Shown one piece after another: positions 14,388 to 64,000 of a stretch of DNA of 64,000 nucleotides. Each line of letters starts with the position of its first letter. The first letter of the stretch is position 1. Source of the DNA: an uncultured Eubacteriales bacterium (GTDB taxonomy: Bacteria > Bacillota > Clostridia > Christensenellales > CAG-138); contig CADBYI010000009.1 in the NCBI GenBank assembly GCA_902798825.1, positions 4,721-68,720 of the forward strand. The letters run 5' to 3'. The notes under the pieces are model-generated. The model did not search any database. It had not been told where the DNA came from and worked only from the letters and a program-made list of their open reading frames with translations. Both the position numbers and the translations under genes were made by a program.

Positions 14388-14418
14388 AAGCCTATTATCC
14401 CAATAGGCTTTTCTTTTT
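14388..14418 (+). terminator. Rho-independent terminator after the dipeptidase gene
   Basis: Stem aagcctatt/aataggctt, loop atccc, followed by TTcTTTTT. Confidence 0.6.
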
Positions 14419-14474
14419 GCGCCGCTTTTTCCTCTTTCTCCAAAGAGAAATAGCGGCAAAAGAAATACTGTTTC

Positions 14475-27106: not shown

Positions 27107-27128
27107 TCTTTCAAGGAGGAAAAACAGT

Positions 27129-42159: not shown

Positions 42160-42175
42160 AGGATGCCTCTCCAAA

Positions 42176-43852
42176 TCAGAACAGGCCGGAAATGACGCCG
42201 TTCTCGTCCACGTCGATCTTCTCCGCCGCGGGGACCTTGGGCAGGCCCGGCATGGTCATGATGTCGCCGGTGTAGCAGACGATGAAGCCCGCGCCGGCGC
42301 AGACCTTCAGATCCGTCACGGTCAGGGTGAAGTCCTGGGGCGCCCCCAGGAGCTTGGGATCGTCGGAGAAGCTGTACTGGGTCTTGGCCATGCAGATGGG
42401 GAATTTGTCGAAGCCCAGATCCGTCAGCAGCTGGGCCTTTTTCTTAGCAGCAGGCATAAACTCCACGTCCTTGGCGTGATAGACCCGCTGGGCGATGGCG
42501 GTGATCTTGCTGAGGATGGGCTGCTCGAGATCGTAGACGAAGGAGAAATGGTTCTCCTGCTCGCAGAGCCGGACCACTTCCTCAGCGAGAGCCTTGCCGC
42601 CCTCGCCGCCCTTTGCCCAAACTTCGGAAAGGGCCACGTTCACGCCCAGCTCCCGGCACTTTTCGGCCACAAGATCCAGCTCCGCCTTGGTATCCGTGGG
42701 GAAGGCGTTGACGGCCACCACGCAGGGCACGCCGTAGACGCTGCGGACGTTGCTCACGTGCTGCAGCAGATTCGGCAGGCCCTTCTCCAGCGCTGCCAGG
42801 TTTTCCACGCCCAGATCGGCCTTAGCCACGCCCCCATGATACTTGAGGGCCCGGACCGTGGCCACGATGACCACCGCCGAGGGCTTGAGGCCCGTCATGC
42901 GGCACTTGATGTCCACGAACTTTTCCGCCCCCAGATCCGCGGCGAAGCCGGCCTCGGTGACGGCGTAGTCGGCCAGCTTCAGCGCCAGGCGGGTGGCCAT
43001 GACGCTGTTGCAGCCGTGGGCGATGTTGGCGAAGGGGCCGCCGTGGATGAAGGCGGGGGTGCCCTCCAGGGTCTGGACCAGGTTGGGCTTGATGGCGTCC
43101 TTCAAAAGGGCCGCCATGGCGCCTTCGGCCTTCAGATCATGGGCGGTGACGGGCTTGCCGGCGTAGGTGTAGCCCACGATGATGCGGCCAAGGCGCTCCT
43201 TTAGATCGGTGATGCTGCCGGAGAGGCACAGGACCGCCATGACCTCGCTGGCCACGGTGATTTCAAAGCCGTCCTCCCGGGGCACGCCCTGGACCTTGCC
43301 GCCCAAGCCGTCCACGATGTGGCGGAGCTGGCGGTCGTTCATGTCCACGGCCCGCTTCCAGGTGATCTGCTTGGGGTCGATACCCAGGGCGTTCCCCTGC
43401 TGGATGTGGTTGTCCAGCATGGCCGCCAGCAGGTTGTTGGCCGCGCCGATGGCGTGGAAGTCCCCGGTGAAGTGGAGGTTGATGTCCTCCATGGGCACCA
43501 CCTGGGCATAGCCGCCGCCGGCGGCGCCGCCCTTGACGCCGAACACGGGGCCCAAGGAGGGCTCCCGCAGGGCCACCATGGCGTTCTTGCCGATCTTGCG
43601 CAGGCCGTCCGCCAGCCCCACGCTGGTGGTGGTCTTCCCCTCCCCCGCGGGGGTGGGGGTGATGGCGGTGACCAGTATGAGCTTGCCGTCGGGCCGGTCG
43701 CTGAGGTCCCGCAACAGGGACAGATCGATCTTGGCCTTGTAGTTGCCGTACTGTTCCAGATACTTTTCCTCGATGCCCGCGCGGGCGGCGATGCTGCGGA
43801 TGGGCTGCTTCTCACAGGCCTGGGCGATCATGATGTCGGATTTGTATTCCAT
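42176..43852 (-). CDS. fhs: Formate--tetrahydrofolate ligase
   Basis: 558 aa with [19 protein letters not shown] and other canonical Fhs blocks. Confidence 0.95.
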
Positions 43853-43921
43853 GTGATTTCCTCCAAAGAATCCAATACTGTTCAGGCGTTTACACGCCGC
43901 AAAAACCGTCGGACGACGGGC

Positions 43922-44368
43922 TCACTCCCCGTCCTCGCCAAGGGGCAGATCCTTGGTCTTGAAAAGGCATTTGAGCTCCACGGAGGTCCGGGAGTCACCG
44001 TAGGTCTTGATGACGGACAGCAGCTCGTCCAGTTCGTCCGTGTCCCGAACGTAAAAGTGGAGCAGGGCGTTGTAGGTGCCGATCAGATGGTGATGCTCCG
44101 TGATGGCCGGGTGCTTCTCGCAGAAGGCGCAGAAGGCGGCGTACTTGGTGGGCTCCGGCGATGCCATGATGTATCCGCCCACGGCATAGCCGATCTTCTC
44201 CCGATTGATGGCGATGCTGTATCCCTCGATGATCCCCTCGTCCTCCAGCTTGTGGATGCGCTCGGAGACCGAAGGCGGGGTCAGGTTCACCCGTTCGCCG
44301 ATCTCCCGCAGGGTCATGCGGGCTTCCGCCTGCAACAAGTTCAGTATCCTTTGATCGGTGGCGTCCAT
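43922..44368 (-). CDS. Lrp/AsnC-family transcriptional regulator
   Basis: MDATDQRILNLLQAEARMTLREIGERVNLTPPSVSERIHKLEDEGII. Length is 148 aa. Confidence 0.9.
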   Translation of the reverse strand: MDATDQRILNLLQAEARMTLREIGERVNLTPPSVSERIHKLEDEGIIEGYSIAINREKIGYAVGGYIMASPEPTKYAAFCAFCEKHPAITEHHHLIGTYNALLHFYVRDTDELDELLSVIKTYGDSRTSVELKCLFKTKDLPLGEDGE

Positions 44369-44380
44369 ATCGTTTCTCCT

Positions 44381-45607
44381 TTAGATGATCTTTTGTCCCT
44401 TTTTGATGACGGTGTTCACCAGATTGCTGCCCATGCGGTAGCAGATGTAGTTCAAATCCTCCGCGTTCCAAATGACCAGATCCCCCTGCTTGCCCACCTC
44501 CAGGGAGCCCAGCCTGTCCGCCCGGCGGATGGCGGCGGCGCCGTTCAGGGTGACGGCGGTCAGCACCTCCTCGGGGGTCAGCCTGTAGCGAAGGCAGCCC
44601 AGGTTCATGACGAACTGCAGATTCAAGCTGGGGCAGGAGCCGGGGTTGAAGTCCGAGGCCATGGCCACGGCCACGCCCTTTTCGATCATGGCCCGGGCCG
44701 GGGCGAAGGTGGAGCCCAGATAGAAGCTGGTGGCGGGCAGCAGGCAGGCCACGGTGCCCGCCTTCGCCATGGCGGCGATGCCCTCCGGGGGGCAGACGAT
44801 AAGGTGCTCGGCGGAGACGGCGCCCACCGCCTCCGTGAGCTGGGAGCCGCCGATGGGATCGATCTCGTCGGCGTGAATCTTGGGGATAAGGCCATAGCGC
44901 TTGCCCGCCTCCAGGATCGTTTGGGACTCCTGGGCGGAGAAGACGCCGGTCTCACAGAACACGTCGCAGAATTCAGCGAGCTTTTCCTCGGCCACGGCGG
45001 GGATGAGCTCCTCACGCAGGAGGCGAATGTACCCTTCCCTGTCCTCCTTATATTCCTTGGGCACCGCGTGGGCCCCCAGGAAGGTGGGAACCAGGTCCAC
45101 GGGGTGGGTCTCGCTGAGGCGGCGGATGGTGCGAAGCTGCTTGAGCTCGTTGTCCATATCGAGGCCGTAGCCGCTCTTGGCTTCCACGGTGGTGACGCCC
45201 AGGGAGAGCATCTCATCCAGAGCTTCCCGGGCCTTCTCCGTCAGCTCCTCCTCGCTGGCGGCTCTCGTGGCGTTGACGGTGGACAGGATGCCGCCGCCCA
45301 TGGCCAGGATGTCCAGATACGTGGCGCCGTGGAGCTTGAGCCCCAGCTCGTTCTGCCGCCAGCCGCCGAAGATCAGGTGGGTGTGGGCGTCCACGAGGCC
45401 CGGGGTCACCAGCTTGCCGCCGGCGTCGATGACCTGGCCCCCCCCTTCGTCGGGCGCGTCGGTGCCGATCTTCGTGACGAGGCCGTCCTCGATCTCCACA
45501 TACGCGTTCTTCAGCACCCGGATCTGGCCCTGCTCCGGCCCGCGGCGGGCGGTTTTGCCCTCCGGGGTGGCCAGCATGCCGATATTCTTGACGATCATCT
45601 TCTGCAT
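44381..45607 (-). CDS. hutI: Imidazolonepropionase
   Basis: 408 aa with PGLVDAHTHLIFGG, HADE and other amidohydrolase/HutI blocks. Confidence 0.9.
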   Translation of the reverse strand: MQKMIVKNIGMLATPEGKTARRGPEQGQIRVLKNAYVEIEDGLVTKIGTDAPDEGGGQVIDAGGKLVTPGLVDAHTHLIFGGWRQNELGLKLHGATYLDILAMGGGILSTVNATRAASEEELTEKAREALDEMLSLGVTTVEAKSGYGLDMDNELKQLRTIRRLSETHPVDLVPTFLGAHAVPKEYKEDREGYIRLLREELIPAVAEEKLAEFCDVFCETGVFSAQESQTILEAGKRYGLIPKIHADEIDPIGGSQLTEAVGAVSAEHLIVCPPEGIAAMAKAGTVACLLPATSFYLGSTFAPARAMIEKGVAVAMASDFNPGSCPSLNLQFVMNLGCLRYRLTPEEVLTAVTLNGAAAIRRADRLGSLEVGKQGDLVIWNAEDLNYICYRMGSNLVNTVIKKGQKII

Positions 45608-45671
45608 GGATGTGTCCTTTCAAACAGCAGGAGGGGAGAGGACAGTCCCTGCCCTCTCCCTCGATTCAATT

Positions 45672-47644
45672 TCAGGCCTTCATGCCCCGGACCGCTTCGG
45701 CTACCAGCTCGTCGTCGGCCACATAGGGCATGGTGATATGATCCGTGCCGGCGTTCAGGCGGTTGTACTCCGCCGCGGTGGCCATGGCGTTCTCGTTCCG
45801 GGCCCAGCTGCGGCGGGCCACGCCCACCATGGTGTCCCAGGGCATGGCCATCCGAAGGATGGTGTCCACCCGCTCGGAGCCGTCCAGCACCATGCCGAAG
45901 CCCCCGTTGATGGCCCGGCCGATGCCCGTGCCGCCGCCGTTGTGGAGGGCGATGTAGCTCATGCCCCGGGCCGCGTTGCCGGCATAGCACTGGGTGGCCA
46001 TTTCGGCCATGATGTTGGAGCCGTCCTTGATGTTGGAGGTCTCCCGGAAGGGGGCGTCGGTGCCGCCGGTGTCGTGATGGTCACGGCCCAGGATCACGGG
46101 GCCGATCTCCCCGTTGCGCACCATTTCGTTGAACTTCAGGGCGATGTTCATGCGGCCCATGGCGTCCTGATAGAGGATGCGGCACTGGGTGCCCACCACC
46201 AGCTTGTTCTTCTTGGCGTCCCGGTGATGTATTCCGCGGCGGCCGCGTCGGTCTTGTCCAGATCCTCCGGGTTCCGGGAAAGGCAGCACCAGCGGAAGGG
46301 ACCGTAGCCGAAGTCGAAGAGCTGGGGCCCCAGGATGTCCTCCACGTAGGAGGGGAACACGAAGCCGTCCAGATCGTTTTCGCCGTTCTTGCAGACGCTC
46401 TTCACGCCGGAATCGTAGACGGCCTTCAAAAAGCTGTTGCCGTAGTCGAAGAAGTAGGTGCCCTTCTCGTGGAACTTGCAGATCATCTCATAGTGATGGT
46501 GCAATGTCTTGTCCACCAGCTTGCGGAAGGTGTCGGGATCCTTGTCCAGCATCTCGGTGCGCTCTGCGAAGGTAAGGCCCTGGGGGCAGTAGCCGCCGTC
46601 ATAGGGCACGTGGCAGGAGGTCTGGTCGCTCATAAGGTCCACATGGACGTTCTTCTCATAGAGGTACTCCAGCAGATCCACGATGTTGCCGTTGTAGGCC
46701 ACGGCGCAGGGCTCCCCGGCCTTCTGGTGATCGAGGGCGATCTGCACGGCCTCCTCCAGGCTGCCGGTCCGGTGGCTCACCCAGCCCTGGGTATAGCGGG
46801 TGTCGATGCGGGAGTCGTCCACCTCGGCGATGATGGAGGCGGCGCCGGCGATCATGGCCGCCTTGCCCTGGGCGCCGCTCATGCCGCCCAAGCCCGCGGA
46901 AACGAACAGCTTCCCGGCCAGGTTCTCATCGTTGGGGATGCCCAGCTTCAGCCGGCCTGCGTTCAGCAGGGTGTTGAAGGTGCCGTGGACGATGCCCTGG
47001 GGCCCGATGTACATCCAGCCGCCGGCGGTCATCTGGCCGTAGTTGGCCACGCCCAGGGCCGCCGCCCGGTTGAAGTTCTCCTGATCGTCGAAGGTGCCCA
47101 CCATGAGGCCGTTGGTGATGATGACCCGGGGGGCCAGCTTGTGGGAATGGAACAGGCCCAGCGGATGGCCGGACATGACCACCAGGGTCTGCTCATCGGT
47201 CAGGGCCTCCAGATACTTCTTGATGAGCCGATACTGCATCCAGTTCTGGCAGACCTGGCCGGTCTCGCCGTAGGTGGTGAGCTCGTAGGGATAGAGGGCC
47301 ACGTCGAAGTCCAGGTTGTTGTCGATCATGACCTGGATGGCCCGACCTTCGATGCAGTTGCCCTTGTACTCATCGATGGGCTTGCCGTAGAGCTTGCCGG
47401 CGGGGCGGAAGCGATAGCCGTAGATGCGGCCGTGCTCCTCCAGCTCCTGGGCGAACTCACGGGCCATCTGGGCGTGATGGTCGGGGTGGATGTACCGAAG
47501 GGCGTTCTTGATGGCCAGGGCCTTGTCGGCCTCGGTCAGATGGGACTCCCGGCGGGGGGCCCGGCGATAGCCCGGCTCCAGAGCGGGGTATTCAGGAAGA
47601 TCGTAATCCAGGGTAAGAGTTTCTGCCGTGTTGAGATCAGTCAT
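45672..47644 (-). pseudogene. hutU: Urocanate hydratase, reading frame disrupted near 46221-46240
   Basis: The N-terminal ~470 codons (MTDLNTAETL... to ...PEDLDKTDAAAAE) lie in the frame of ORF 46148-47731. The C-terminal ~183 codons (HHRDAKKNKLVVGTQCRILYQD...GRDHHDTGGTD...) lie in the frame of ORF 45672-46289. Total length is 1973 nt, which is not divisible by 3. Confidence 0.85.
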
Positions 47645-47700
47645 CCATGTGTCCTCTCTTTCGAAAGATATAAATGAAGAGTCAAATTGGCTTTTCCACC

Positions 47701-47728
47701 TTGTATTATACCGTACCTGTGATATAAT
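47701..47728 (+). promoter_or_regulatory. Sigma-A-type promoter of the LysR-family gene
   Basis: TTGTAT (47701-47706), 16-nt spacer ending in TGa, TATAAT (47723-47728). Confidence 0.45.
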
Positions 47729-47781
47729 CAAAAATATTTAGTCGGTATTTTTACAATACTTTTTGGGTATGGAGGTGTCCC

Positions 47782-48675
47782 ATGACCATTCGACAGCTGG
47801 AATACTTCTGCGCCACGGTGGAGGAGGGCAGCGTTTCCGCCGCCGCCCGGAAGCTCCACGTGGCCCAGCCCCCCGTCTCCCGGCAGATCGCGCTGCTGGA
47901 ACAGGAGTTCGGCACGATCCTGTTCCACCGGGGCAACAAGGGCATGAGGCTCACCGAAGCCGGGGAAAGCCTCTATCAGCAGGGGCGCCAGTACATCGCC
48001 GACATGCAGCAGCTGGCGGAGCAGGTCCGCTCCTTGGGCACCGGCGTCAGGGGCCTGGTCCGGGTGGGGCTGCTCTACTCCACCGTCCCCTATGCCCTGC
48101 CCTATCTGCAAGCCTATCACGCGGCCTACCCCCACGTGGAGCTGTACATCCGCCTGGGCTCCCCCCAGGATCTGATGGCGGACATCAACCGGGGCACCCT
48201 GAACGCCCTGTTCTTGCGCAGCGGCGTCCGGGAGACCCTGTCCCTCAGCGGCCGGGTGCTGGGGGACGACGAATTGAAGCTCATCGTCACCGCCCGGACG
48301 GACCCGGCCCCGGAGCTGGACGTGGTCCCCATCGAGCGGCTGCGAGGGGTGCCCATGTGCCTGTTGAGCAGCGACGATCTGTGGGGCTACAACGAGCCTT
48401 TGGTGAAGGAGTGTCAGCGCTGCGACTTCTCCCCCAACATCGTCTGCCAGTGCTACGACACCCCCATGGTCATGCAGCTGGTCCAATCGGGCTTCGGCGT
48501 CAGCTTCCTGCCCGAAACCATCGTGAAAACCATGCCCCGCTCGGGCATCTATACCAAGGGCATCGAGGGGCTGCGGGCCACCCTCTCGGTGGTGCTGGCC
48601 TGGGACAAAAACGCCTACCGTTCCGGCAGCGTGGAGCGCTTTTTGCACTTTCAGGAGAAGGACCAAAACCCCTAA
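47782..48675 (+). CDS. LysR-family transcriptional regulator
   Basis: MTIRQLEYFCATVEEGSVSAAARKLHVAQPPVSRQIALLEQEFG. Length is 297 aa. Confidence 0.9.
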   Translation: MTIRQLEYFCATVEEGSVSAAARKLHVAQPPVSRQIALLEQEFGTILFHRGNKGMRLTEAGESLYQQGRQYIADMQQLAEQVRSLGTGVRGLVRVGLLYSTVPYALPYLQAYHAAYPHVELYIRLGSPQDLMADINRGTLNALFLRSGVRETLSLSGRVLGDDELKLIVTARTDPAPELDVVPIERLRGVPMCLLSSDDLWGYNEPLVKECQRCDFSPNIVCQCYDTPMVMQLVQSGFGVSFLPETIVKTMPRSGIYTKGIEGLRATLSVVLAWDKNAYRSGSVERFLHFQEKDQNP

Positions 48676-48789
48676 AAAAAGAAGGCCGCGGCGGATAAGG
48701 AGCGAACGATGTTCATTAACACCGGCCGCCGACTGTGCTATGATAGGTATAATCCCAAGAAAAGAATCGAATATCAGGAGGAAACACCC

Positions 48790-49704
48790 ATGGCTAAACT
48801 GGTCGAGACCATCCCCAATTTCAGCTGCAGCCGCGAAAAGGATGAGGCTGCCTACAACGCCCTCGTCAAGACCGCCAACAGCGTCCCCGGCTGCACTCTC
48901 TTCGACGCCCAGACCGACGGCAACCACAACCGCTGCGTCTTCACCCTCATCGGCTCCCCCGAAGCCATCGAGGAGGTGGCCTTCCAGCTGACCAAGACCG
49001 CTTCCGAAGTCATCGACATGACCAAGCACCACGGCGAGCACAAGCGCATGGGCGCCACCGACGTGATCCCCTTCGTGCCCCAGATGGACGTCACCGTCCA
49101 GGAGTGCATCGAAATGAGCCGTCGCCTGGGTCAGCGGATCTGGGACGAGCTCAAAATCCCCTCCTTCCTCTATGAGGACAGCGCCACCCGGCCCGAGCGC
49201 CGGAATCTGGCCACCTGCCGCAAGGGCGAGTTCGAGGGCATGCCCGAGAAGCTCCTGCAGCCCGAGTGGGCCCCCGACTTCGGCGAGCGGAAGATCCATC
49301 CCACCGCCGGCATCACCGCCATCGGCGCCCGGATGCCCCTCATCGCCTTCAACTGCAATCTGGCTACCTCCGACGTGGAGATCGCCAAGAAGATCGCCAA
49401 GGCCATCCGCGGCTCCTCCGGCGGCTTCCGCAGCTGCAAGGCCATGGGCTTCATGCTGGAGGACAGGGGCATCGCCCAGGTGTCCATGAACATGGTGAAC
49501 TATGAGGACACGCCCCTCTTCCTGACCTATGAGATGATCAAGTCCCTGGCCGAGCGGTACGGCACCCGGGTCATCGAAAGCGAGATCGTGGGTCTCACCC
49601 CTGCCAAGGCCCTTATCGACTGCGCCGAATACTACCTGAAGGCCAAGGATTTCGACTGCAAGAACCAGGTGATGGAGTATCACCTGATCGACATGAACCA
49701 TTGA
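48790..49704 (+). CDS. Glutamate formimidoyltransferase
   Basis: ATG 48790 follows AGGAGGAA. MAKLVETIPNFSCSREKD (the PNFSEGR-type N-terminus), HHGEHKRMGATDVIPFVP. Length is 304 aa. Confidence 0.85.
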   Translation: MAKLVETIPNFSCSREKDEAAYNALVKTANSVPGCTLFDAQTDGNHNRCVFTLIGSPEAIEEVAFQLTKTASEVIDMTKHHGEHKRMGATDVIPFVPQMDVTVQECIEMSRRLGQRIWDELKIPSFLYEDSATRPERRNLATCRKGEFEGMPEKLLQPEWAPDFGERKIHPTAGITAIGARMPLIAFNCNLATSDVEIAKKIAKAIRGSSGGFRSCKAMGFMLEDRGIAQVSMNMVNYEDTPLFLTYEMIKSLAERYGTRVIESEIVGLTPAKALIDCAEYYLKAKDFDCKNQVMEYHLIDMNH

Positions 49705-49714
49705 AGGTGACGCC

Positions 49715-50347
49715 ATGAAGCTGTGTGATATGACCGTCACGGAATTCGTGAATACCGTGGCCTCCGACGCCCCCGCCCCCGGCGGCGGCTCCGTGGCCGC
49801 CCTGGCCGGCTCCATCGGCGCCGCCCTCACCGCCATGGTGGGGAATCTGACCCAGGGCCGGAAGAAGTACGCCGAATACGCCGCCTTCGCCGCCCAGGTG
49901 GAGACCAGGGGCAACCAGCTCAAGGCCCAGCTTTTGGACGTCATGGACCGGGACACGGAGGCGTTCCTGCTGGTCAGCAACGCCTTTGCCATGCCCAAGG
50001 CCACCGACGAGGAGAAGGCCGCCCGCTCCGCCGCCATCCAGGCCGGGCTCAAAGCCTGCACCAAGACCCCCATGGAGATGATGGAGCTGTGCGCGGACGC
50101 GGCCAAGCTGGCCGCCGATTTTGCGGACAACGGCTTTAACGACTCCTCCGCCAGCGATCTGGGTGTGGCGTTTTTGAGCCTGTCCGCCGCCATTCGGGGC
50201 GCCTGGCTGAACGTGCTCATCAACATCTCCTCCATCAAGGACCAAGCCTTCGCCGACGAGTACCGTCAAAAGGGCCAGGCCCTGCTGGACGCCACCCTCC
50301 CCCTGTGCGACGCAGGGTATGCCAAGGTGTTGGGGATGGTCCAATGA
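49715..50347 (+). CDS. Formimidoyl-THF cyclodeaminase-family protein
   Basis: FVNTVASDAPAPGGGSVAALAGSIG. It is a paralogue of 41542-42159 and sits adjacent to the formimidoyltransferase gene. Confidence 0.8.
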   Translation: MKLCDMTVTEFVNTVASDAPAPGGGSVAALAGSIGAALTAMVGNLTQGRKKYAEYAAFAAQVETRGNQLKAQLLDVMDRDTEAFLLVSNAFAMPKATDEEKAARSAAIQAGLKACTKTPMEMMELCADAAKLAADFADNGFNDSSASDLGVAFLSLSAAIRGAWLNVLINISSIKDQAFADEYRQKGQALLDATLPLCDAGYAKVLGMVQ

Positions 50348-56749: not shown

Positions 56750-57469
56750 ATGGAAAACAGTATCCAAACCAAAGTCAACAAGATCGGCAGGGCCGGCAGG
56801 ATCGTTTCTATCGTCCTGATCGTGCTGCTCTCCATCGGGGCCTTCTCCCTCCTGCTGGCGGGGGGCGTCTGCGCCGTCCTGCCCGAGGACACGGTGGAGG
56901 TATCCTTCCGGCCCAACGCAGACGTGCTGGTGGGCAGGTCTATCCTGGGTCAGGAATGGAGCCGGATCGACGAAATCGTCGCCGAAGCTCAGGAAGCGCT
57001 GACCGGGAAATACGGCGAAGTCATCCAATTTGATAAGACGGACCGGGGCCTCCTGATCCGCCTGGATCGCCTGATGGAGGAGGGCGAGGTCTTTCGTCTC
57101 AGAAACGCCCTCGGCGCCATCTGGGCGGGTCTCGTGGGCATCGCCAGCGCCATCGTGGCCCTGGTCATGTTCCTGAAGCTCTCCGACGCCTTCCGGGTCT
57201 GCCGCTCCCCCTTCGACGAGGCCGTGATCCGGCGGATGAACATCTTCGCCTGGACGCTGATCGTCTGCGCCGTGGTGGGCTCCTTCGCCGGCTCCGCCGC
57301 CCAGAGCGCGGTGATGGCCTTCCAGAACGCGGGCATCCACGTGGGGGCCAAGAACTTCGGCGTCTCCCTGGACCTCTACCCCATCTTCGCCGCCCTCATC
57401 GTGTTCTTCCTCTGCATGATCTTCCGCTACGGGGCCCAGCTCCAGCAGGAAGCCGACGAGACCCTGTGA
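56750..57469 (+). CDS. DUF2975-like membrane protein
   Basis: 239 aa with 4 predicted TM helices. It shows the typical pairing with a downstream small HTH gene. Confidence 0.55.
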   Translation: MENSIQTKVNKIGRAGRIVSIVLIVLLSIGAFSLLLAGGVCAVLPEDTVEVSFRPNADVLVGRSILGQEWSRIDEIVAEAQEALTGKYGEVIQFDKTDRGLLIRLDRLMEEGEVFRLRNALGAIWAGLVGIASAIVALVMFLKLSDAFRVCRSPFDEAVIRRMNIFAWTLIVCAVVGSFAGSAAQSAVMAFQNAGIHVGAKNFGVSLDLYPIFAALIVFFLCMIFRYGAQLQQEADETL

Positions 57470-57477
57470 GGCGCGCC

Positions 57478-57699
57478 ATGGGTAAGATCATCCTTAGGCT
57501 CGATCGGGTCATGGCCGATCGAAAGATGAGCCTCAACGAGCTGTCGGAGAAGGTGGGCGTGGCCAACGTGAACCTCTCCAAGCTGAAGAACGGCCACATC
57601 AGCGCCATCCGCTTCTCCACCCTCATCGCCATCTGCGAAGCCCTCCACTGCCAGCCGGGAGACATCCTGGAATACGCGCCGGACACTCAGGAGGAATGA
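57478..57699 (+). CDS. XRE/YozG-type helix-turn-helix transcriptional regulator
   Basis: ATG 57478. MGKIILRLDRVMADRKMSLNELSEKVGVANVNLSKLKNGHISAIRFSTLIAICEALHCQPGDILEY. Confidence 0.85.
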   Translation: MGKIILRLDRVMADRKMSLNELSEKVGVANVNLSKLKNGHISAIRFSTLIAICEALHCQPGDILEYAPDTQEE

Positions 57700-57781
57700 G
57701 CCACTGAACGCACGGAGCCGGCAGGGACCCATATAGTCCCTGCCGGCTCGTTTCAGCTGTGTCACGGTTTTCGTATCTTCC

Positions 57782-58480
57782 CTAATACTCCAGCGCAGAC
57801 AGCCAGGCCTTTACCTTTTCCTGTACGCCGTCCCGATCGTTCTGGGCGTCGGCGCCGCGGATCGCCAGGCCCTGGAGGACCGTGCTGTTGGGGCAGGCGG
57901 CGGAAAGCTTTTTGTCGAAGCCGGAGAGCCCGCTGCCCTCATGGGTGGAGAACGGGATCAGCGTCTTCCCCGCCAGGGCGTCCCCGTTGGTTTCAAAGAA
58001 GGTGTACAGGATCATGGGCCAGTCGCCCCACCACACCGGCGCGCCGATGAAGATAGCGGTATAGGGCGCAAGGTCGGGTACCTGTCCCGTATAGCCGGGG
58101 CGGGCGTTCTCCCTCTGCTCGCGCTTGGCCACATCTGTGAGCTCGTTGTACGTCAGAGGGTAATGATCGTCCGTGGGCAGGATTTCAAAGAGGTCCGCGC
58201 CGGTCTCGGCGGCGATCATCCGGGCCACGATGGCCGTGTTGCCCTCCTCGATGACGCCCACGTTGTACTGCTCGCCGGTGCGGGAAAAATACACCACCAG
58301 AACGTCGCTTTTTTGATTTGCTTCGGCGGGTGCGCCTTCCTCCTCAGCGGGAGCCGCCGCAGGGGATGGCTGGGGTTCATCCGCCTGCAGGGAACCGTCC
58401 GCCGCGGCGGATCGGGTGCAGCCCATCAGGGTCAGCAGCAGGACGACTGCCAGAAGAATCGATCCGATTCTTTTCATCAT
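57782..58480 (-). CDS. Exported flavodoxin-like lipoprotein
   Basis: Starts at the internal ATG 58480. MMKRIGSILLAVVLLLTLMGC carries a lipobox, followed by a Pro/Ala/Glu linker. The flavodoxin-like core is VLVVYFSRTGE...FIGAPVWWGDWP...IPFSTHEGSG. Confidence 0.75.
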   Translation of the reverse strand: MMKRIGSILLAVVLLLTLMGCTRSAAADGSLQADEPQPSPAAAPAEEEGAPAEANQKSDVLVVYFSRTGEQYNVGVIEEGNTAIVARMIAAETGADLFEILPTDDHYPLTYNELTDVAKREQRENARPGYTGQVPDLAPYTAIFIGAPVWWGDWPMILYTFFETNGDALAGKTLIPFSTHEGSGLSGFDKKLSAACPNSTVLQGLAIRGADAQNDRDGVQEKVKAWLSALEY

Positions 58481-58509
58481 ACGCTTCTCCTTTTCGATTC
58501 GTGTTGCGG

Positions 58510-59658
58510 TCAATACCCAAATACCTGGGCTGCCTTTTTCATGTTCTCCCGAATGGAGACGCCGAAGGGACACCGGGCCTCGCAGGCCCCGCACCGGACG
58601 CATTCGCCGGCGTGATGGAGCAGCGCTTTATAGTGCTCCCGCACGGTCTCGGGCACCTCCCCCTGCGCTTCGGCCAGGTGGAGGAACTTGGTCACGTCCG
58701 CCACGCTGATCCCCTTCGGACACGGCGCGCAATGGCTGCAATACATGCAGTGCCCCTCCCAGTGGATGCGGGGGAAGGACGCCAGGGCGGCGGCATAGTC
58801 CCGCTCCGCTTCGCTGGCCTCGCAGTAGGCGGCGCTCTGCTCCAGCTGCTCCACCGAATGGGCCCCCGCCAGGACCACCGACACCGCCGGCCGGGAAAGG
58901 GCATAGGAGATGCACTGGTGGGCCGTCAGGGCCACCCCCGCCGGGGACAGCTCCGCGTTCAGCAGATCGCCGCCCGCAAAGGCCTTCATGACCGTGATGC
59001 CCACGCCCAGGCGCTGGCAGGTTTCATAGAGCCGCTGACGGTCAGGGTCCATGTTGGTGAGCACGCCGGCGTAGGCCTCGTCCGCCCACAGATCGTCCAC
59101 GTCCTCGCTGGCGGGCTGCAGATCGTAGCAGGGGTTGACGGAGAACATCAGCACCTCGATGCCGCCCTCCAAAACGGCGCGCTCGGCCACAAGGGGGTTG
59201 TGACTGGAGAGCCCGATATGCCGGATGAAGCCCTGCTGTTTCAGCTTTCGGGCATAGTCCAGGATGCCGTTGTTCACGATGGCCTCCCAATCCGACATGG
59301 CGTCGCAATAGTGGATCATGCCCACGTCGATGTAGTCCGTGCCGAGAAGCTGCAGCATTTCCTCAAAGCCCCGCTTCGTCTCGTCAAGGTCGCGGGTGCG
59401 GAGATACTGTCCGTTCTTCCAGACGGAGCAGAGATGGGATTGGATGACGAACTTCTCCCTGCGCCCCGAAAGCGCCCTGCCGACGGCGGCGCGCAGCTCC
59501 GGATCAGAGGCATAGAGGTCGAAATAGTTGATCCCCAGCCCCTCCGCCGCGTCGAAGAGCCGGCCGGTCATCCCGTAGTTGTCCTCGTTCATGCCCTCAC
59601 AGCCCATGCCGATGACGCTGACGGACAGGCCGGTGTTTCCCAATGTGCGATATTCCAT
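58510..59658 (-). CDS. Aldo/keto reductase fused to a C-terminal 2x[4Fe-4S] ferredoxin-like domain
   Basis: ATG 59658 (MEYRTLGNTGLSVSVIGMGC). The C-terminus has CMYCSHCAPCP and CVRCGACEARCP. Confidence 0.85.
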   Translation of the reverse strand: MEYRTLGNTGLSVSVIGMGCEGMNEDNYGMTGRLFDAAEGLGINYFDLYASDPELRAAVGRALSGRREKFVIQSHLCSVWKNGQYLRTRDLDETKRGFEEMLQLLGTDYIDVGMIHYCDAMSDWEAIVNNGILDYARKLKQQGFIRHIGLSSHNPLVAERAVLEGGIEVLMFSVNPCYDLQPASEDVDDLWADEAYAGVLTNMDPDRQRLYETCQRLGVGITVMKAFAGGDLLNAELSPAGVALTAHQCISYALSRPAVSVVLAGAHSVEQLEQSAAYCEASEAERDYAAALASFPRIHWEGHCMYCSHCAPCPKGISVADVTKFLHLAEAQGEVPETVREHYKALLHHAGECVRCGACEARCPFGVSIRENMKKAAQVFGY

Positions 59659-59670
59659 ATTTCTCACCTC

Positions 59671-59763
59671 TCAAATGTTGTGGTAAACGTCCTGCATGGG
59701 CAGGCCCATGCAGCCGAAGCCGCTATCCCAGCGGATCTCGGGAAAGAACTTGTTTTCTGCCAT
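59671..59763 (-). CDS. 30-codon small ORF with a strong RBS, unknown function
   Basis: AAGGAGGAG lies 5 nt before ATG 59763. It encodes MAENKFFPEIRWDSGFGCMGLPMQDVYHNI. It sits 18 nt after the permease stop and 12 nt before the AKR start. Confidence 0.35.
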   Translation of the reverse strand: MAENKFFPEIRWDSGFGCMGLPMQDVYHNI

Positions 59764-59781
59764 GGTCTCCTCCTTGTTCCC

Positions 59782-60693
59782 TTACAGCACAAGATTTATG
59801 AGCAGGCCGGAGAGCAGCGAAAACAGCATCACATAGCCCAGATACAGCAAAAACCGCCTCCAGCCCATGCAAATCTTCAGGGCGCCCAGGTTGGTGATCT
59901 TGGTGGCGGGGCTGGTGATCATGAACGCCGCCGCGGAGCCCAGGCTCATACCCTCCGCGAGCCAGCTTTGCAGCAGGGGGATGGTCCCGCCGCCGCAGGC
60001 GTAGAGGGGCACGCCGATGGTGGCCGCCATCAAAACGCCCCAGGCCTCGTTGCCGCCGAAGGCCCGGACCATCCAGGCTTGGGGCACGTATCGCTGAAAC
60101 AGGGCGGAGAGCAGCACGCCCAAGAGGAAGTATAGGCCCGTGGCCTTCACGTTCCGCCACAGGTTCAACAGATACCGGACGAAAAGATTCGGGTGGGTGT
60201 CCCGGCTGGCGCCCGCTTCGAACCCCTCGAAGTTGAAAAACGGCTTCCGGCGATAAAACAGGTGCACCAGCAGGCCCGCCCCGCAGCCACAGAAAAAGCA
60301 GGTGACGATCCGCACGACAAGGGCCATCGTGCCGAGCGCAGCGCTGTAGACCATGAGCTGGGGATTCAGCAGGATGGACCCCATCATGAAGGCCGCCAGC
60401 CAATCCTCCCGCATGCCCTGTTTTCGGAACGACGCGGCGATGGGGATCGTGCCGTACATGCATAGCGGTGAAGCGATGCCCAGCAGGCAGGCGGGCACGA
60501 TGCCCGCCAGGCCCCATGTTTTGCTCTGCATCCGGGCGAACAGGCTGTGAATCCTATCCTTGGCGAACACGGAGATCAGGGACCCGATCCCCATGCCCAG
60601 CACCCAGTACCAGAAGATCTGCTTCAGCTGCAGGTCAAAATAGTACCAGATATAAACGAATTCACGCCGGAGGATGGCCCAGAGATCAGCCAT
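59782..60693 (-). CDS. Permease (DUF318/ArsP-like two-repeat family)
   Basis: Starts at the internal ATG 60693 (MADLWAILRREF). The repeats are GIASPLCMYGTIPIAASF and GVPLYACGGGTIPLLQSW. It overlaps the DUF362 stop by 8 nt. Confidence 0.55.
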   Translation of the reverse strand: MADLWAILRREFVYIWYYFDLQLKQIFWYWVLGMGIGSLISVFAKDRIHSLFARMQSKTWGLAGIVPACLLGIASPLCMYGTIPIAASFRKQGMREDWLAAFMMGSILLNPQLMVYSAALGTMALVVRIVTCFFCGCGAGLLVHLFYRRKPFFNFEGFEAGASRDTHPNLFVRYLLNLWRNVKATGLYFLLGVLLSALFQRYVPQAWMVRAFGGNEAWGVLMAATIGVPLYACGGGTIPLLQSWLAEGMSLGSAAAFMITSPATKITNLGALKICMGWRRFLLYLGYVMLFSLLSGLLINLVL

Positions 60694-61756
60694 CGATATC
60701 GACCAACGTATAGGTCCGGCTGCCCAGGCCGATCTCCTCAGCGTGCTCCAGGGTGTGGATGCCGTGCTGCCGCTCCATGCGGCGAACCAGGGAGGCGCTG
60801 TCCGGCGCGGCGTAGACCAGGTCCACACAGGCCTGATCGAGGGCCACCGGGTCCGTCGAAGCCAGAATACCGATGTCGTGCATATCCGGCTCGGCGGGGT
60901 TGCCGTCGCAGTCGCAGTCCACGGAGAGGCGATTCATCACGTTGATGTAGACGATGTGCTCCGCCCCCACGTGATCCCGGACGCCGGTGACCATCTCGCC
61001 CAAGGCCTCCAGCCAGGCGTCCTGGTCGCTGTACCAGATGCTGCCCTTGGTCTTGGTGCCGGCGGTGTGGACATAGACCTTGCCGCTGGGAGAGGACATG
61101 CCGATGGCCACGTTCTTGATGGCGCCGCCGAAGCCCGCCATGGCGTGGCCCTTGAAGTGGGAGAGGACGACCCAGTCCCTGTAGTTCTCGGCGTGGCTGC
61201 CCACAATGGCCCGGTTCAGCCGGGTGCCCCCGGTGACCGGCCATTCCATCTCCCCCTCCTCGTCCAGCAGGTCAAACGGCGCTATGGCCGTGAAGCCGTG
61301 ATCCGCAGCCACCTGCTTATGGAGGGCCGCGCTGGAACGGGAGCCGCCGTAGGCGGTGTTGCATTCCACGATGGTGCCGCTGAGCTTCTGTACCAGCTGG
61401 CCGATGAGCTCCGGCCGCAGATAGTTGCTGGCCGGGGGCTCGCCGGTGGAGATCTTCACCGCCACCGGGCCCGTGGGCTGCCAGTTCAGGGCCTCATAGA
61501 CCTTCACCAGCCCCGCCGCGGAGATATCCGAGGTGAAGTAGACCACAGGCGCGCCGTTGACGGTCGCCTGCGGCTCGGCCCCTTCCGCCGATCGCTGGGA
61601 CAGGGCGGTGACGGTCAGGCGGCTCGAACCGGCATCGCCTTGGGTCGGTGCGTCCGTCGGGCGGGCTGCGGAGGCTTCCGGCCGGCCGGCACACCCGGCG
61701 AGCAGAAGCACCGCCGCCAGCAAGCACATCCATGCCTTTTTCGTAAGGTGTTTCAT
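60686..61756 (-). CDS. Exported DUF362-like lipoprotein
   Basis: ATG 61756. MKHLTKKAWMCLLAAVLLLAGC carries a lipobox. ECNTAYGG, HFKGHAMAGFGGAIKN and LSVDCDCDGNP are as I recall for DUF362. Confidence 0.5.
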   Translation of the reverse strand: MKHLTKKAWMCLLAAVLLLAGCAGRPEASAARPTDAPTQGDAGSSRLTVTALSQRSAEGAEPQATVNGAPVVYFTSDISAAGLVKVYEALNWQPTGPVAVKISTGEPPASNYLRPELIGQLVQKLSGTIVECNTAYGGSRSSAALHKQVAADHGFTAIAPFDLLDEEGEMEWPVTGGTRLNRAIVGSHAENYRDWVVLSHFKGHAMAGFGGAIKNVAIGMSSPSGKVYVHTAGTKTKGSIWYSDQDAWLEALGEMVTGVRDHVGAEHIVYINVMNRLSVDCDCDGNPAEPDMHDIGILASTDPVALDQACVDLVYAAPDSASLVRRMERQHGIHTLEHAEEIGLGSRTYTLVDIDG

Positions 61757-61811
61757 CTGCATCCTTCCTTTCGTATGCGTCTTGTCTTCAGCGGATGCCG
61801 TTTGCATCGAG

Positions 61812-62489
61812 CTAGGCCGTTACGTCGCCCGGCATGGACCCGGCGGCGGGCCGGATCAGCGACGCCACACAGGCACCAAAGCAGGCGAACGCCGCCAGCA
61901 TAGCCAGGTTTTCCAGGAAGACGAGGACGGCGGATTTGTCGTAGTCAAAGAAGGCGAACGGGGCGCGAAACAGCATATAGTCCGTGATGCCGTTTCTATA
62001 AAACAGCCATGCCCCGACGCCCGCCCCTGCGGCGAAAAGGATCGCCAGGGTCGTTTTGAGCCTGCCGTTCCACCTGGCCGTCATGGCGGGCAGGTGCAGG
62101 CCCAGGTGGACCCCCATGAGCACGAACGACCAATAGGACAGGGCGAGATGGACCTGCCGCGCGAAGGACACGGGCAGCATCCCATAGAGGAACGGCACCG
62201 CGTGGGCGCTCATGGCCATGCCGCAAAGGGCCGTCAGCGCGATGGAGGCGAGCAGCAGCGTGTTGACGAGAGTCGTGAGGGTCCGATAGGCGGTGTATTT
62301 GCCCCTGAACAGGGCCCCATACCACCTGCGGTTCAGGACGTGGTGGAGGATCAGCAGGGCGGTCATGCCGATGCCGAACCATTCGTGGAGCGATTCGCCG
62401 GTCGCCTGATACGCCGTGAGGCACAGGAGAAGGGCCGTCATGCCCGCGTCCACGATCAGTTTTATGGATTTTGTCCGGTTTGCCCCCAT
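61812..62489 (-). CDS. DUF4405-like polytopic membrane protein with intramembrane His residues
   Basis: 225 aa with about 6 predicted TM helices. The His residues occur in LHEWFGIGMTALLILHHVLNRRW and QVHLALSYWSFVLMGVHLGLHL. Confidence 0.45.
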   Translation of the reverse strand: MGANRTKSIKLIVDAGMTALLLCLTAYQATGESLHEWFGIGMTALLILHHVLNRRWYGALFRGKYTAYRTLTTLVNTLLLASIALTALCGMAMSAHAVPFLYGMLPVSFARQVHLALSYWSFVLMGVHLGLHLPAMTARWNGRLKTTLAILFAAGAGVGAWLFYRNGITDYMLFRAPFAFFDYDKSAVLVFLENLAMLAAFACFGACVASLIRPAAGSMPGDVTA

Positions 62490-62505
62490 GGCGGCCTCCG
62501 CCCGT

Positions 62506-63258
62506 TTAGTCTAGTCCCTTGATCCAGTCGGCAAGGTCGCTTTCCGACACGCCGCCCGAAAACCGCCTGCCGTCCAGCCAGTTGCCGCCCTTGGCGTGCT
62601 CGGCCAGGTTCTTGCCGCTTCTGCCGATGCCGCTGCTGGCGGAGGTGCAGAACGGGATCATGGTGATTGTGCCGAAATCATAGCTTTCCACGAATGTGTC
62701 GAGGATCCGGGGCTCCTCGCCCCACCAGATGGGATAGCCCACATAGATGCGCTCATAGCCGGAAAGGTCCAGGGGTTCGCTGGCGATGGCGGGGCGAACC
62801 GCGGCGTCGTTCTGCTCCTTGGTGGTGCGGCTGCTCCGATCGTTCCAGTTCAGGTCCGCCTCGGAATAGGGCTCGGCGGCCAGTATCTCATACAGGTCGG
62901 CGTCCTCCAGGGCGGCTATTTTCTCAGCGACGCCTTTTGTGGTGCCGGTGGCGGAGAACACCACCACCAGCACGGTTTTGTGCGTCGCCGGAGCCTCCGT
63001 AGGCTCCGCAGCCGACGCTTGGATGGGCTCGGCGGGCAGCTCCGCCGTGGGCTCCTCCGGCGCAGCCGCAGGCTCGGCTGGCTCGACATCGATCGTCGGT
63101 TCAGCCGTCTCTGCCGCAGACGCTTCGGCCGCGGTGCTCTTCGGCACCTCGGTGGCTATGGCGGGCGCGGCGGAGACCTGGGGTCCAGCGGGCTTGCTGC
63201 AGGCAAGGATGCCCATGGTCAACAGGGCGAACAGCAGGATGGAAATTGTTTTTTTCAT
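62506..63258 (-). CDS. Exported flavodoxin-like lipoprotein (second copy)
   Basis: Starts at the internal ATG 63258. MKKTISILLFALLTMGILAC carries a lipobox, followed by a long Ala/Pro/Glu linker. The core is VLVVVFSATGTTK...YVGYPIWWGEEP...IPFCTSASSG. Confidence 0.75.
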   Translation of the reverse strand: MKKTISILLFALLTMGILACSKPAGPQVSAAPAIATEVPKSTAAEASAAETAEPTIDVEPAEPAAAPEEPTAELPAEPIQASAAEPTEAPATHKTVLVVVFSATGTTKGVAEKIAALEDADLYEILAAEPYSEADLNWNDRSSRTTKEQNDAAVRPAIASEPLDLSGYERIYVGYPIWWGEEPRILDTFVESYDFGTITMIPFCTSASSGIGRSGKNLAEHAKGGNWLDGRRFSGGVSESDLADWIKGLD

Positions 63259-63269
63259 AGGAAGGCTCC

Positions 63270-63614
63270 TTATTTCAGATTCTCGTCTTTCTCGCCCCAT
63301 ACCTCTTTGGCCAGACGGAACACCGCCCAACCCTTGGGCCAGCCCACGTACATGGCGGCGTGGGTGATGATGGCGGCGATCTCCTCCTTCGTCACGCCGT
63401 GGGCCTTGGCGTTCTGCAGGTGATAGATGAGAGAGCTGTCCGTGATCCCGGACGCCATCAGGGAGACCACTGTGACGATGCACCTGGTCTTCACGTCGAT
63501 GGCTTCGTCGTTCCAAACCTCGCCGAAGAGCACGTCGTCGTTCAGGTGGGCGAATAGAGGCGCAAAGGAACCCAGCTGGTTCCGGCCGGCCGTTTGGACT
63601 ATTTTTTCACTCAT
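63270..63614 (-). CDS. Carboxymuconolactone decarboxylase (AhpD-like) family protein
   Basis: ATG 63614 follows GGAGGA. LFGEVWNDEAIDVKTRCIVTVVSLMASG...HLQNAKAHGVTKEEIAAIITHAAMYVGWP. Confidence 0.75.
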   Translation of the reverse strand: MSEKIVQTAGRNQLGSFAPLFAHLNDDVLFGEVWNDEAIDVKTRCIVTVVSLMASGITDSSLIYHLQNAKAHGVTKEEIAAIITHAAMYVGWPKGWAVFRLAKEVWGEKDENLK

Positions 63615-63631
63615 ATGCAAATCCTCCGTTC

Positions 63632-63955
63632 CTATTTTCGGATATATTTATCGTCCGATTGAGGCGCGTCCAGGGAAGTGAACCGCGCCGCCTCCATGTG
63701 CAGGTCGTATTTCTCCCGCAGGGCCGCCAGCTGCCCCATCATGGGGCTTTTATGATGCCGGTCGATGGCCCCCTGATCCGCCCAGGAATCGATCAAAAGC
63801 ACCGTTTCGGGATCGTCCAGGGGAACGAAGTACCGATATTGCAGGTTGCCCGTTTCGGCCCGGATGGCGTTTGCGATGCCCGAGTGCTCCATCTCCTCGG
63901 CAAAGGCCCGCGCGCTGCCGTTCCGGCCATGATATAGCAGATGGACCGTGATCAT
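63632..63955 (-). CDS. Antibiotic-biosynthesis-monooxygenase (ABM/Dabb) domain protein
   Basis: 107 aa with LLIDSWADQGAIDRHHKSPMM. Its ATG overlaps a TGA of an upstream open frame that runs off the right edge. Confidence 0.7.
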   Translation of the reverse strand: MITVHLLYHGRNGSARAFAEEMEHSGIANAIRAETGNLQYRYFVPLDDPETVLLIDSWADQGAIDRHHKSPMMGQLAALREKYDLHMEAARFTSLDAPQSDDKYIRK

Positions 63956-64000
63956 CGTCCTTCCTCCCCCTCTCCCAACAGGCCGCAGATGCAGGTGCGG

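Follow-up and report, generated by a model that had tools for sequence, protein, structure and literature searches.

The stretch of DNA analysed here (64,000 nucleotides of contig CADBYI010000009.1, positions 4,721–68,720; hereafter the window) carries on its minus strand, at window positions 57782–63955, a tightly packed operon that probably encodes a TetR-gated route by which electrons leave the cell: a di-haem membrane cytochrome of the DUF4405 family acting as a conduit to lipid-anchored flavodoxins at the cell surface, which reduce an external acceptor or partner enzymes. Following the proposed path from the inside outwards, the DUF4405 protein—a six-helix cytochrome b in which paired histidines would hold one haem near each face of the membrane—would receive electrons from a donor, in the cytoplasm or the membrane, that the operon does not fix, and pass them to the flavin mononucleotide (FMN) of a flavodoxin (FldA, here also FldB) tethered by lipid to the outer face of the membrane. 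Once reduced, the surface flavodoxin would in turn reduce an extracytoplasmic acceptor; small oxidants, quinones and flavins are all conceivable in this place, as is a partner enzyme, for which the exported DUF362 protein encoded here and the FGE-sulfatase domains found in other species are candidates. The DUF362–ArsP_1 pair, an aldo-keto reductase (AKR) with a ferredoxin-like domain (AKR-Fe/S) and FldB would, in this scheme, be optional add-ons recruited to the same promoter. The direction of flow, the donor, the acceptor and the loading of FMN outside the cell are what we infer for the operon. A previous reading of the window (the original prediction) had proposed that all nine genes form a single redox module, fed from the cytoplasm by the AKR-Fe/S protein; it is partly supported, its core—a His-rich b-type cytochrome in the membrane feeding flavodoxins on the outside—being the part that stands.

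At the centre of the operon, the DUF4405 protein (225 aa; 61812..62489, minus strand) matches PF14358 with an E-value of 4.4e-8 and a score of 34.0 bits, above the cut-off of 26.7; its close homologues bear the NCBI name ‘DUF4405 domain-containing protein’, in a family that comprises 2629 clusters at 50% identity (E ≤ 1e-3). In our AlphaFold2 model (pLDDT 94, pTM 0.89) we see six long helices, spanning residues 3–25, 27–52, 67–92, 107–136, 142–165 and 187–212. The positive charges (Lys/Arg) of the sequence lie at the N-terminus and in the loops that connect transmembrane (TM) helices 2 and 3 and TM helices 4 and 5, a distribution that places both the N- and the C-terminus inside the cell. Histidines occur at positions 35, 49, 50, 96, 114, 128 and 132: helix 2 bears His35 and His49, and helix 4 bears His114 and His128, the members of each pair being 14 residues apart. 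Across 110 representatives (32–72% identity) these four are 96–100% conserved and His132 is conserved in 95%, with His50 and His96 not conserved; in alignment A1 (38 sequences) the same four are invariant. Two pairs of histidines, spaced i/i+14 on two helices, are the classical arrangement of a bis-His di-haem cytochrome b. Combined with the topology, this leads us to predict that His35 and His114 ligate the outer haem, and His49 and His128 the inner one.

Proteins of this kind were described by Huang et al. (mSystems 2024; PMC11334425) in gene clusters that contain apbE, from both Firmicutes and Proteobacteria, with six helices and four central histidines modelled, haem b spectra obtained for a purified Oscillospiraceae member (MBD5117352.1), and a structural similarity to MsrQ-like and PepSY-like proteins reported; the clusters often encode a flavinylated, extracytosolic Flavodoxin_4 protein and a flavin ECF transporter. 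The window protein shares with this type its Pfam family, the six TM helices, the four conserved central histidines, an extracytosolic Flavodoxin_4 partner, and a host group of Oscillospiraceae and other Firmicutes. The likeness to di-haem b-type conduits remarked upon in the original prediction, which had drawn attention to histidines within the predicted helices, agrees both with the haem b experiment of PMC11334425 and with the 95–100% conservation that we find among the representatives. For the core, its remark that no characterised system has such a composition no longer holds, since this part was described in 2024 (PMC11334425).

On the outer side of the membrane we place the two flavodoxins. 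FldA (250 aa; 62506..63258, minus strand; PF12682, E 2.3e-48) has a signal peptide (MKKTISILLFALLTMGILAC), from which ~70 aa of linker rich in Ala, Pro and Glu lead to an FMN domain of the 3KLB type; FldB (232 aa; 57782..58480, minus strand; PF12682, E 1.2e-21), with the N-terminus MMKRIGSILLAVVLLLTLMGC, is of the PRK06934 type (NCBIfam E 4e-35, below cut-off). By motif reading, FldA, FldB and the DUF362 protein each have a lipobox (ILAC, LMGC and LAGC, respectively) preceded by a Lys/Arg-rich N-terminus and a hydrophobic core, and followed by an Ala/Pro/Glu low-complexity linker of 35–70 residues. A lipobox with a low-complexity linker behind it is the usual build of Gram-positive lipoproteins. 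The same signal is widespread among relatives, with a lipobox in 60 of the 64 partner flavodoxins encoded in the loci of our census (described below).

A second line of evidence for the position of the flavodoxins comes from fusion proteins. At their C-terminus, DUF4405 relatives may carry Flavodoxin_4 (P0241, P0298, P0317 and P0345), FGE-sulfatase (P0242 and P0246), FGE-sulfatase together with Flavodoxin_4 (P0245), Cyclophil_like2 (P0244) or two FMN_bind domains (P0288); several of these fusions are found on multiple independent contigs, and so are not artefacts of assembly. In every case the sixth helix leads, through a stretch rich in Lys and Arg, into a strongly hydrophobic seventh helix, behind which comes a linker of low complexity; the additional TM helix puts the fused partner on the side opposite to the C-terminus of the six-helix core, i.e. 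outside the cell. The flavinylation literature, for its part, defines FMN_bind domains as extracytosolic (PMC8238504). Lipoboxes and fusions together bear out the original prediction in setting the flavodoxin domains outside. We also see that P0290, a member of the DUF4405/FGE-sulfatase set, begins with a MerR helix-turn-helix (HTH) domain.

The manner in which these exported flavodoxins hold their flavin appears to set them apart from the published type. FldA aligns gaplessly to 3KLB, a Flavodoxin_4 protein that binds FMN non-covalently (E 3e-41), and in that alignment retains the phosphate loop (FSATGTTK) as well as the segments PIWW and TSASSG. FldB has an insert of 11 residues (RTGEQYNVGVIEE) between β1 and α1, at the position of the flavinylation insert of published proteins; it contains no [ST]GA[ST] site, and the alignment to 3KLB begins after it. 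The ApbE motif D..[ST]G[AS][ST] occurs in 0 of 64 partner flavodoxins of the census loci, with two distant relatives (~35–41% identity) serving as positive controls: the fused flavodoxins of P0345 and P0317 carry, respectively, the DAVSGAS and AAVSSAS form of the insert described in PMC11334425. Genes for ApbE (PF02424), FMN_bind or ECF proteins are not listed within 8–10 kb in seven annotated contexts (L001, L005, L007, L009, L011, L095 and L097), nor is any of them found among the 39 window open reading frames (ORFs) scanned, the search being confined to the window and the annotated contexts. Unlike in the type of Huang et al., then, a flavinylation motif is missing from FldA, from FldB and from all 64 partner flavodoxins, and there is no apbE or flavin ECF gene nearby; further differences are a TetR_C_34 repressor with a conserved dual operator, a frequent CMD gene and, often, an AKR. 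Judged by sequence, the exported flavodoxins of the DUF4405/TetR branch appear to hold their flavin without a covalent bond. It is remarked in PMC11334425 that extracytosolic flavodoxins show signs of flavinylation, and flavodoxins devoid of a flavinylation site challenge the suggestion that covalent flavin is required outside the cytosol. Recognition of DUF4405 cytochromes dates only from 2024 and was confined to the setting of ApbE flavinylation; the window locus shows a second, large branch.

The size and make-up of this branch emerge from a comparative census. Scanning one genome per species with alignment A2 and two strict peptide patterns returned at least 313 species-level genomes with a DUF4405 relative, from which 80 loci (L015–L094; 53–77% identity) were kept and searched with the window proteins as phmmer queries; counts upstream of the DUF4405 gene refer to the 60 loci with ≥3 kb of upstream sequence, and those downstream to the 56 loci with ≥3 kb on that side. 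Hosts are mostly Oscillospiraceae, Ruminococcaceae, Lachnospiraceae, Mogibacterium and Anaerovoracaceae of the rumen and gut, with a few metagenome-assembled genomes (MAGs) of Chloroflexi and Atopobiaceae; cultured carriers include the Lachnospiraceae strains AC2029, AD3010 and NK4A179 (loci L069, L077 and L084). A Flavodoxin_4 gene directly precedes DUF4405 in 55 of the 60 upstream regions, TetR is present in 51 and CMD in 42, AKR in about half, ABM in 12 and Flavin_Reduct in 7; on the downstream side we find FGE-sulfatase in 16/56 (usually with a further flavodoxin domain next), DUF362 in 10/56 and ArsP_1 in 8/56. In L009/L038 the flavodoxin–DUF4405 pair stands alone. The window operon is one arrangement of a modular operon family, the core of which is formed by TetR, CMD, a lipoprotein flavodoxin and DUF4405, with DUF362–ArsP_1, FGE-sulfatase, AKRs, flavin reductases, ABM and extra flavodoxins as optional modules. 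Co-conservation of the genes, as originally predicted, is upheld for the flavodoxin–DUF4405 pair but not for the nine genes as one obligate pathway; what we see instead is a mosaic of core and optional modules.

Two further aspects of the census may be mentioned here. The FGE-sulfatase association recurs in loci that include L021, L049, L051, L056, L058 and L097, often with another Flavodoxin_4 domain at the C-terminus. Loci from MAGs assigned to other phyla (L042, L066, L086 and L087 from Anaerolineaceae, Flexilinea and Chloroflexi MAGs; L057 from an Atopobiaceae MAG) carry copies of the DUF4405 gene 62–68% identical to that of the window, with TetR, AKR, CMD, FGE, Fld and DUF362 neighbours; either rumen bacteria have exchanged these copies horizontally, or the contigs were mis-binned.

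Control by TetR becomes apparent only beyond the edge of the window. The frame that overlaps the start of the ABM gene and runs off the right edge (63952..64000, minus strand; ending ...RTCICGLLGEGEEGR, i.e. …GEEGR), its TGA stop overlapping the ABM start codon in the sequence ATGA, can be followed on a contig from another metagenome (L001), which is 99.92% identical to window positions 57539–64000 over 6462 nt and extends past the edge. There the frame proves to be the end of a 212-aa TetR_N/TetR_C_34 regulator, so that the regulator sought beyond position 64000 is indeed present; the operon, as continued in L001, has ten genes, with its promoter ~0.7 kb outside the window. Upstream of tetR lies a recurrent palindrome, TGACA-N3-TGTCA, of which we count 130 copies in 1.19 Mb of loci against ~1 expected: nearly all of them fall in the 200 nt that precede tetR, a stretch with at least one copy in 60 of the 61 tetR-bearing loci and two or more in 50 loci, with positions peaking at approximately -80 and -45 relative to the tetR start codon. 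One palindrome overlaps the -35 hexamer (TTGACA) and the second follows the -10, the pair falling at 7540–7640 in L001. From their sequence and placement, these are candidate operators of a classical autoregulated TetR-type switch. No TGACA-N3-TGTCA site occurs inside the window, which fits one promoter lying past the edge and none under TetR control within the operon.

The remaining features of the operon agree with transcription as one unit. Nine minus-strand ORFs are confirmed at the coordinates given in this text, with every named Pfam family scoring above its gathering threshold in our Pfam scan; hidden Markov model searches thus settle the DUF4405, DUF362 and Flavodoxin_4 assignments of the original prediction, and its ORFs, gaps, 8-nt overlap and three lipoboxes are likewise recovered from the ORF list and on recomputation. 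The ABM-family protein (107 aa, cytoplasmic; 63632..63955, minus strand; PF03992, E 1.2e-12) is separated from CMD, a carboxymuconolactone decarboxylase/AhpD-like protein (114 aa, cytoplasmic; 63270..63614, minus strand; PF02627, E 2.9e-19), by 11 nt if CMD starts at TTG, or by 17 nt if it starts at the ATG that is better positioned behind GGAGG; in gene order, the other junctions measure 11, 16 and 55 nt, an overlap of 8 nt, and 18, 12 and 29 nt. A consensus scan found no internal promoter-like site in the operon, and the one terminator-like match that it gave there on the minus strand, a stem of 5 pairs within the CMD gene, is weak. Just 3' of the FldB stop codon, a perfect 14-bp GC-rich hairpin (57715..57749, unstranded; RNA fold -40.5 kcal/mol, z = -5.2, with 0/200 shuffles equally stable) is common to the operon and to a convergent XRE-type HTH gene; it is likely to be a bidirectional 3' end of the transcription unit, though it lacks a clear U-tract. 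The transcription unit therefore comprises tetR and the nine ORFs.

As to what the operon is for, we favour an inducible role in redox defence or detoxification over constitutive respiration, on account of the co-regulation of CMD, ABM and AKR genes with a ligand-sensing repressor. The companions themselves say little about a substrate: the CMD protein has no CxxC motif and falls below the PcaC equivalog cut-off, look-ups in PDB and NCBIfam for TetR, CMD, ABM and AKR gave generic family names and no substrate clue, and our literature search on the combination of CMD, flavodoxin, AKR and TetR found nothing relevant.

Several points count against a TetR-gated cytochrome–flavodoxin conduit with this role. 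Haem b binding has been shown only for one member of the family, the Oscillospiraceae protein MBD5117352.1, from which it would be carried over to the window protein and its subfamily by analogy. When our DUF4405 model was compared with the PDB by Foldseek, there was no match at E < 0.3, cytochrome b6 and STEAP4 appearing only at noise level; the similarity to MsrQ and PepSY reported in the literature was likewise not reproduced by this search. The operon encodes no universal cytoplasmic donor, and the case for detoxification draws on nothing more specific than the generic families to which CMD, ABM and AKR belong. Finally, the proposed conduit has to presuppose that a Sec-exported flavodoxin, with neither an ApbE motif nor a nearby apbE gene, would acquire and retain FMN outside a Gram-positive cell.

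The most serious rival to a conduit with a general acceptor is one in which the chain exists to keep a single exported enzyme reduced. We consider this unlikely as a full account, yet it merits close attention. The model here is MsrPQ (YedYZ in Escherichia coli), where a reductase in the periplasm is supplied with electrons by MsrQ, a membrane protein containing haem b. By analogy, the window system would share with MsrPQ a small haem-b integral membrane protein with TM histidine ligands, and an outward flow of electrons to an extracytoplasmic redox partner; it differs in having a flavodoxin as that partner, and in lacking both a Ferric_reduct (PF01794) match and an MsrP molybdoenzyme in the Pfam scan of the operon (a weak Ni_hydr_CYTB match, E 9e-4, appears only in the relative P0345). 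The enzyme so maintained would here be the DUF362 protein, with a metal, cofactor or substrate moved by the ArsP_1 permease; elsewhere it would be an FGE-sulfatase or cyclophilin-like domain.

Gene context gives this idea its weight. All four informative contexts of close DUF362 homologues (4/4) are TetR_C_34 operons in which DUF362 directly follows a DUF4405-type gene, and in L011, L095 and L097, chosen for the length of their contigs alone, it is the DUF362–ArsP_1 pair that does so. A DUF362 protein of 38% identity comes after a distant DUF4405–flavodoxin fusion in L099, and FGE-sulfatase is fused to or follows DUF4405 in 16/56 loci. To these may be added the conserved 8-nt overlap of the DUF362 and ArsP_1 genes, and the high conservation of the DUF362 domain with its His/Lys/Cys motifs. 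Against it, DUF362 is present in only 10/56 DUF4405 loci, many flavodoxin–DUF4405 pairs have no candidate terminal enzyme, and the DUF362 protein of L099 has no signal peptide, indicating that the side of the membrane on which it works is not constant. The associations of DUF4405 with DUF362–ArsP_1 and with FGE-sulfatase are not mentioned in PMC11334425 or PMC8238504; should they hold, two abundant surface domains (DUF362 and FGE-sulfatase-like) are tied to a redox supply line.

The DUF362 lipoprotein itself (356 aa; 60686..61756, minus strand; PF04015, E 5e-41) has the N-terminus MKHLTKKAWMCLLAAVLLLAGC, followed by a linker of ~50 aa and a domain that is 70–88% identical among 27 homologues of different assemblies. 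The lipobox Cys is ≥90% conserved in alignment A3, and the close homologues listed have either a lipobox or a cleavable AxA (signal peptidase I) signal. Comparison with the 38%-identical cytoplasmic relative from L099 picks out the conserved motifs HFKGH-x-M-x-GFGG-x-x-KN and S-V-x-C-D-C-x-G, together with a third Cys and several His. In the literature, we found neither a function nor a cofactor for DUF362 (PF04015, COG2006). DUF362 and the N-terminal domain of LarA do belong to the same Pfam clan, CL0471 (PMC11770544), and when a poor model of the window protein (pLDDT 60) was compared with the PDB, the LarA structures 2yjg and 5huq were its only matches at E <= 0.001 (E 2e-4 to 1e-3, TM ~0.3); we treat these modelled, fold-level matches as a lead only. 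Sequence and profile searches against the PDB gave no match to DUF362, LarA included, and unlike LarA the window protein is exported by a Sec-type lipoprotein signal.

In connection with LarA we noticed further genes. The L099 locus (8001–15894) encodes a DUF4405–TM7–Flavodoxin_4 fusion, whose flavodoxin has the DAVSGAS insert, and then the cytoplasmic DUF362 protein without signal peptide (38% identical to ours); also in this locus are a divergent P-type ATPase and then larE-, larB- and larC-like genes of nickel-pincer cofactor synthesis, 2.5 kb from DUF362. A general linkage of DUF362 with Lar proteins is to be rejected, as larB, larC and larE occur only in L099 and are absent from the window and the other loci (~100). 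The window does contain, on the plus strand at 37445–38731, a LarA-like gene (Lar_N, E 2.6e-11), set between a 6-phosphogluconate dehydrogenase-family gene and one for glucuronate isomerase and 20 kb from DUF362; its presence suggests that the organism probably makes the nickel-pincer cofactor somewhere.

Downstream of DUF362, the ArsP_1-family permease (303 aa; 59782..60693, minus strand; PF03773, E 3e-36) begins within the end of its neighbour, its start overlapping the DUF362 stop by 8 nt (ATGGCTGA), an arrangement that suggests translational coupling; an identical overlap is present in L011, L096 and L097. The permease is built of two repeats, each with a Cys beside a conserved Pro-rich motif (SPLCMYGTIP and VPLYACGGGTIP). 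In NCBIfam it scores 112.5 bits for SO_0444 (cut-off 300) and 58.1 for SaoE (cut-off 325), so that only the level of PF03773 is reached; unlike ArsP, SO_0444 and SaoE permeases, it falls below the equivalog cut-offs, has no ars or metal-resistance genes nearby, and is coupled to an exported DUF362 protein. That it moves a metal, a cofactor or a substrate for this protein is speculation on our part.

Taken to its furthest, this line of thought would have Clostridia of the gut and rumen conduct redox chemistry at their surface without covalent flavin: electrons would run from the di-haem DUF4405 protein through non-covalent flavodoxin lipoproteins to an exported DUF362 enzyme of the LarA superfamily, itself furnished with a metal or organometallic cofactor by the co-translated ArsP_1 permease. 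We regard this as a long shot, somewhat less likely even than enzyme support in its general form; if true, it would amount to a new class of extracytoplasmic redox enzyme, and to a first function for DUF362.

That all nine genes form one pathway, as the original prediction had it, we now think improbable. Here the AKR-Fe/S protein would oxidise NAD(P)H and send the electrons via DUF4405 to the surface flavodoxins—an attractive scheme inasmuch as this is the operon's only cytoplasmic product with predicted electron-transfer cofactors, and all the genes lie close together in a single transcription unit. The protein (382 aa, cytoplasmic; 58510..59658, minus strand) joins an AKR domain (Aldo_ket_red, E 6.7e-21) to a C-terminal ferredoxin-like domain for two clusters (Fer4_9, 1.9e-05); of the two CxxCxxCxxxCP motifs ascribed to it, the second is canonical (CVRCGACEARCP) but the first, CMYCSHCAPCP, is not, having the spacing CxxCxxCxxCP. 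Strong orthologues are found in just 2 of the 80 related loci (L043 and L080), which argues that AKR-Fe/S is not a dedicated electron input; the strong orthologue of FldB is confined to 1/80 (L036), the flavodoxin–DUF4405 pair can stand alone (L009/L038), and other loci carry Flavin_Reduct, FMN_red or a cytoplasmic Flavodoxin_4 instead. The claim that the AKR feeds the chain thus finds little support. The junction in front of the AKR-Fe/S gene speaks against the scheme too. A 30-aa ORF there (59671..59763, minus strand) has no Pfam or NCBIfam match but does have a strong AAGGAGG Shine-Dalgarno site; as a conserved micro-protein it can be rejected, tblastn matching only the identical operon in L001. 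Its GFGCMGLP segment resembles the N-terminus of ~380-aa AKRs (L097: ..LGFGMMRLPV), and from this resemblance it is probably a relic of the 5' end of an AKR gene at a module junction—the scar, as it were, of shuffling; a non-conserved AKR-like relic in this position suggests that such shuffling was recent.

In Listeria monocytogenes, extracellular electron transfer (EET) ends in PplA, an FMN_bind protein to which FmnB attaches the flavin and which receives electrons from a dedicated NADH dehydrogenase by way of demethylmenaquinone (PMC8238504). A respiratory function of this sort for the window operon, with catabolic electrons placed on iron, flavins, humics or oxygen for energy conservation, is the least probable of the alternatives: the outline is alike, in that the host is taken to be Gram-positive and a membrane electron carrier would lead to a flavoprotein lipoprotein with FMN at the surface, and DUF4405 proteins have been linked to flavinylation-based EET gene clusters (PMC11334425), but none of the Pfam families of the Listeria locus (Ndh2, EetA/B, DmkA/B, FmnA/B and PplA) is present in the operon or in annotated related contexts, neither an Ndh2-type dehydrogenase, quinone biosynthesis, ApbE/FmnB, a PplA-like FMN_bind protein nor an ECF flavin transporter was seen in five annotated contexts, the membrane step here is a cytochrome b, the repressor is a ligand-type TetR with dual operators, and the conserved companions are CMD, AKR and ABM rather than catabolic dehydrogenases.

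Returning to the TetR-gated conduit that we prefer, what is new with respect to the published type is the lack of an ApbE motif in the partner flavodoxins, control by TetR, an exported DUF362 protein (of putative LarA fold) with its permease, and the fusions with FGE-sulfatase. The system bears on how strictly anaerobic Firmicutes of the gut and rumen move electrons to the cell surface, and it lends itself directly to testing: operator and repressor are both defined, the ligand of the repressor would show what triggers the system physiologically, and the conduit in its smallest form comprises just two genes.

Convergent with the operon, on the plus strand at 56750–57699, are genes for a DUF2975 membrane protein and a 77-aa XRE/VanU-like HTH protein, overlapping by 4 nt; this pair is a common two-gene cassette. 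On the other side, L001 has a SnoaL-like gene and a divergent regulator of the LysR type, the latter accompanied by an AKR and by a cytoplasmic Flavodoxin_4 protein of 173 aa, and, past this LysR–Fld4–AKR–SnoaL cluster, genes for TnpV, GIY-YIG and acetyltransferase proteins (L001 1209–3854). The best species-level match to the window DUF4405 gene is only 76–77% identical. This region past the right edge may belong to an island that is mobile or variable.

Elsewhere the window consists of ordinary Clostridia chromosomal DNA, with genes for histidine utilisation, formate-tetrahydrofolate ligase, SpoVAD/SpoVAEB and transporters. Its histidine-utilisation and one-carbon cluster (41542–50347), which confirms this ordinary chromosomal setting, comprises urocanase, a LysR regulator, formiminotransferase, two FTCD_C cyclodeaminase paralogues, formate-tetrahydrofolate ligase and an amidohydrolase. 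Three paralogues of the PEP_mutase/isocitrate-lyase superfamily are encoded at 17676–18578 (minus strand), 27039–28106 (plus) and 28126–29076 (plus); two of the three are adjacent, and are found beside an oligopeptide-type ABC transporter and an MFS gene.

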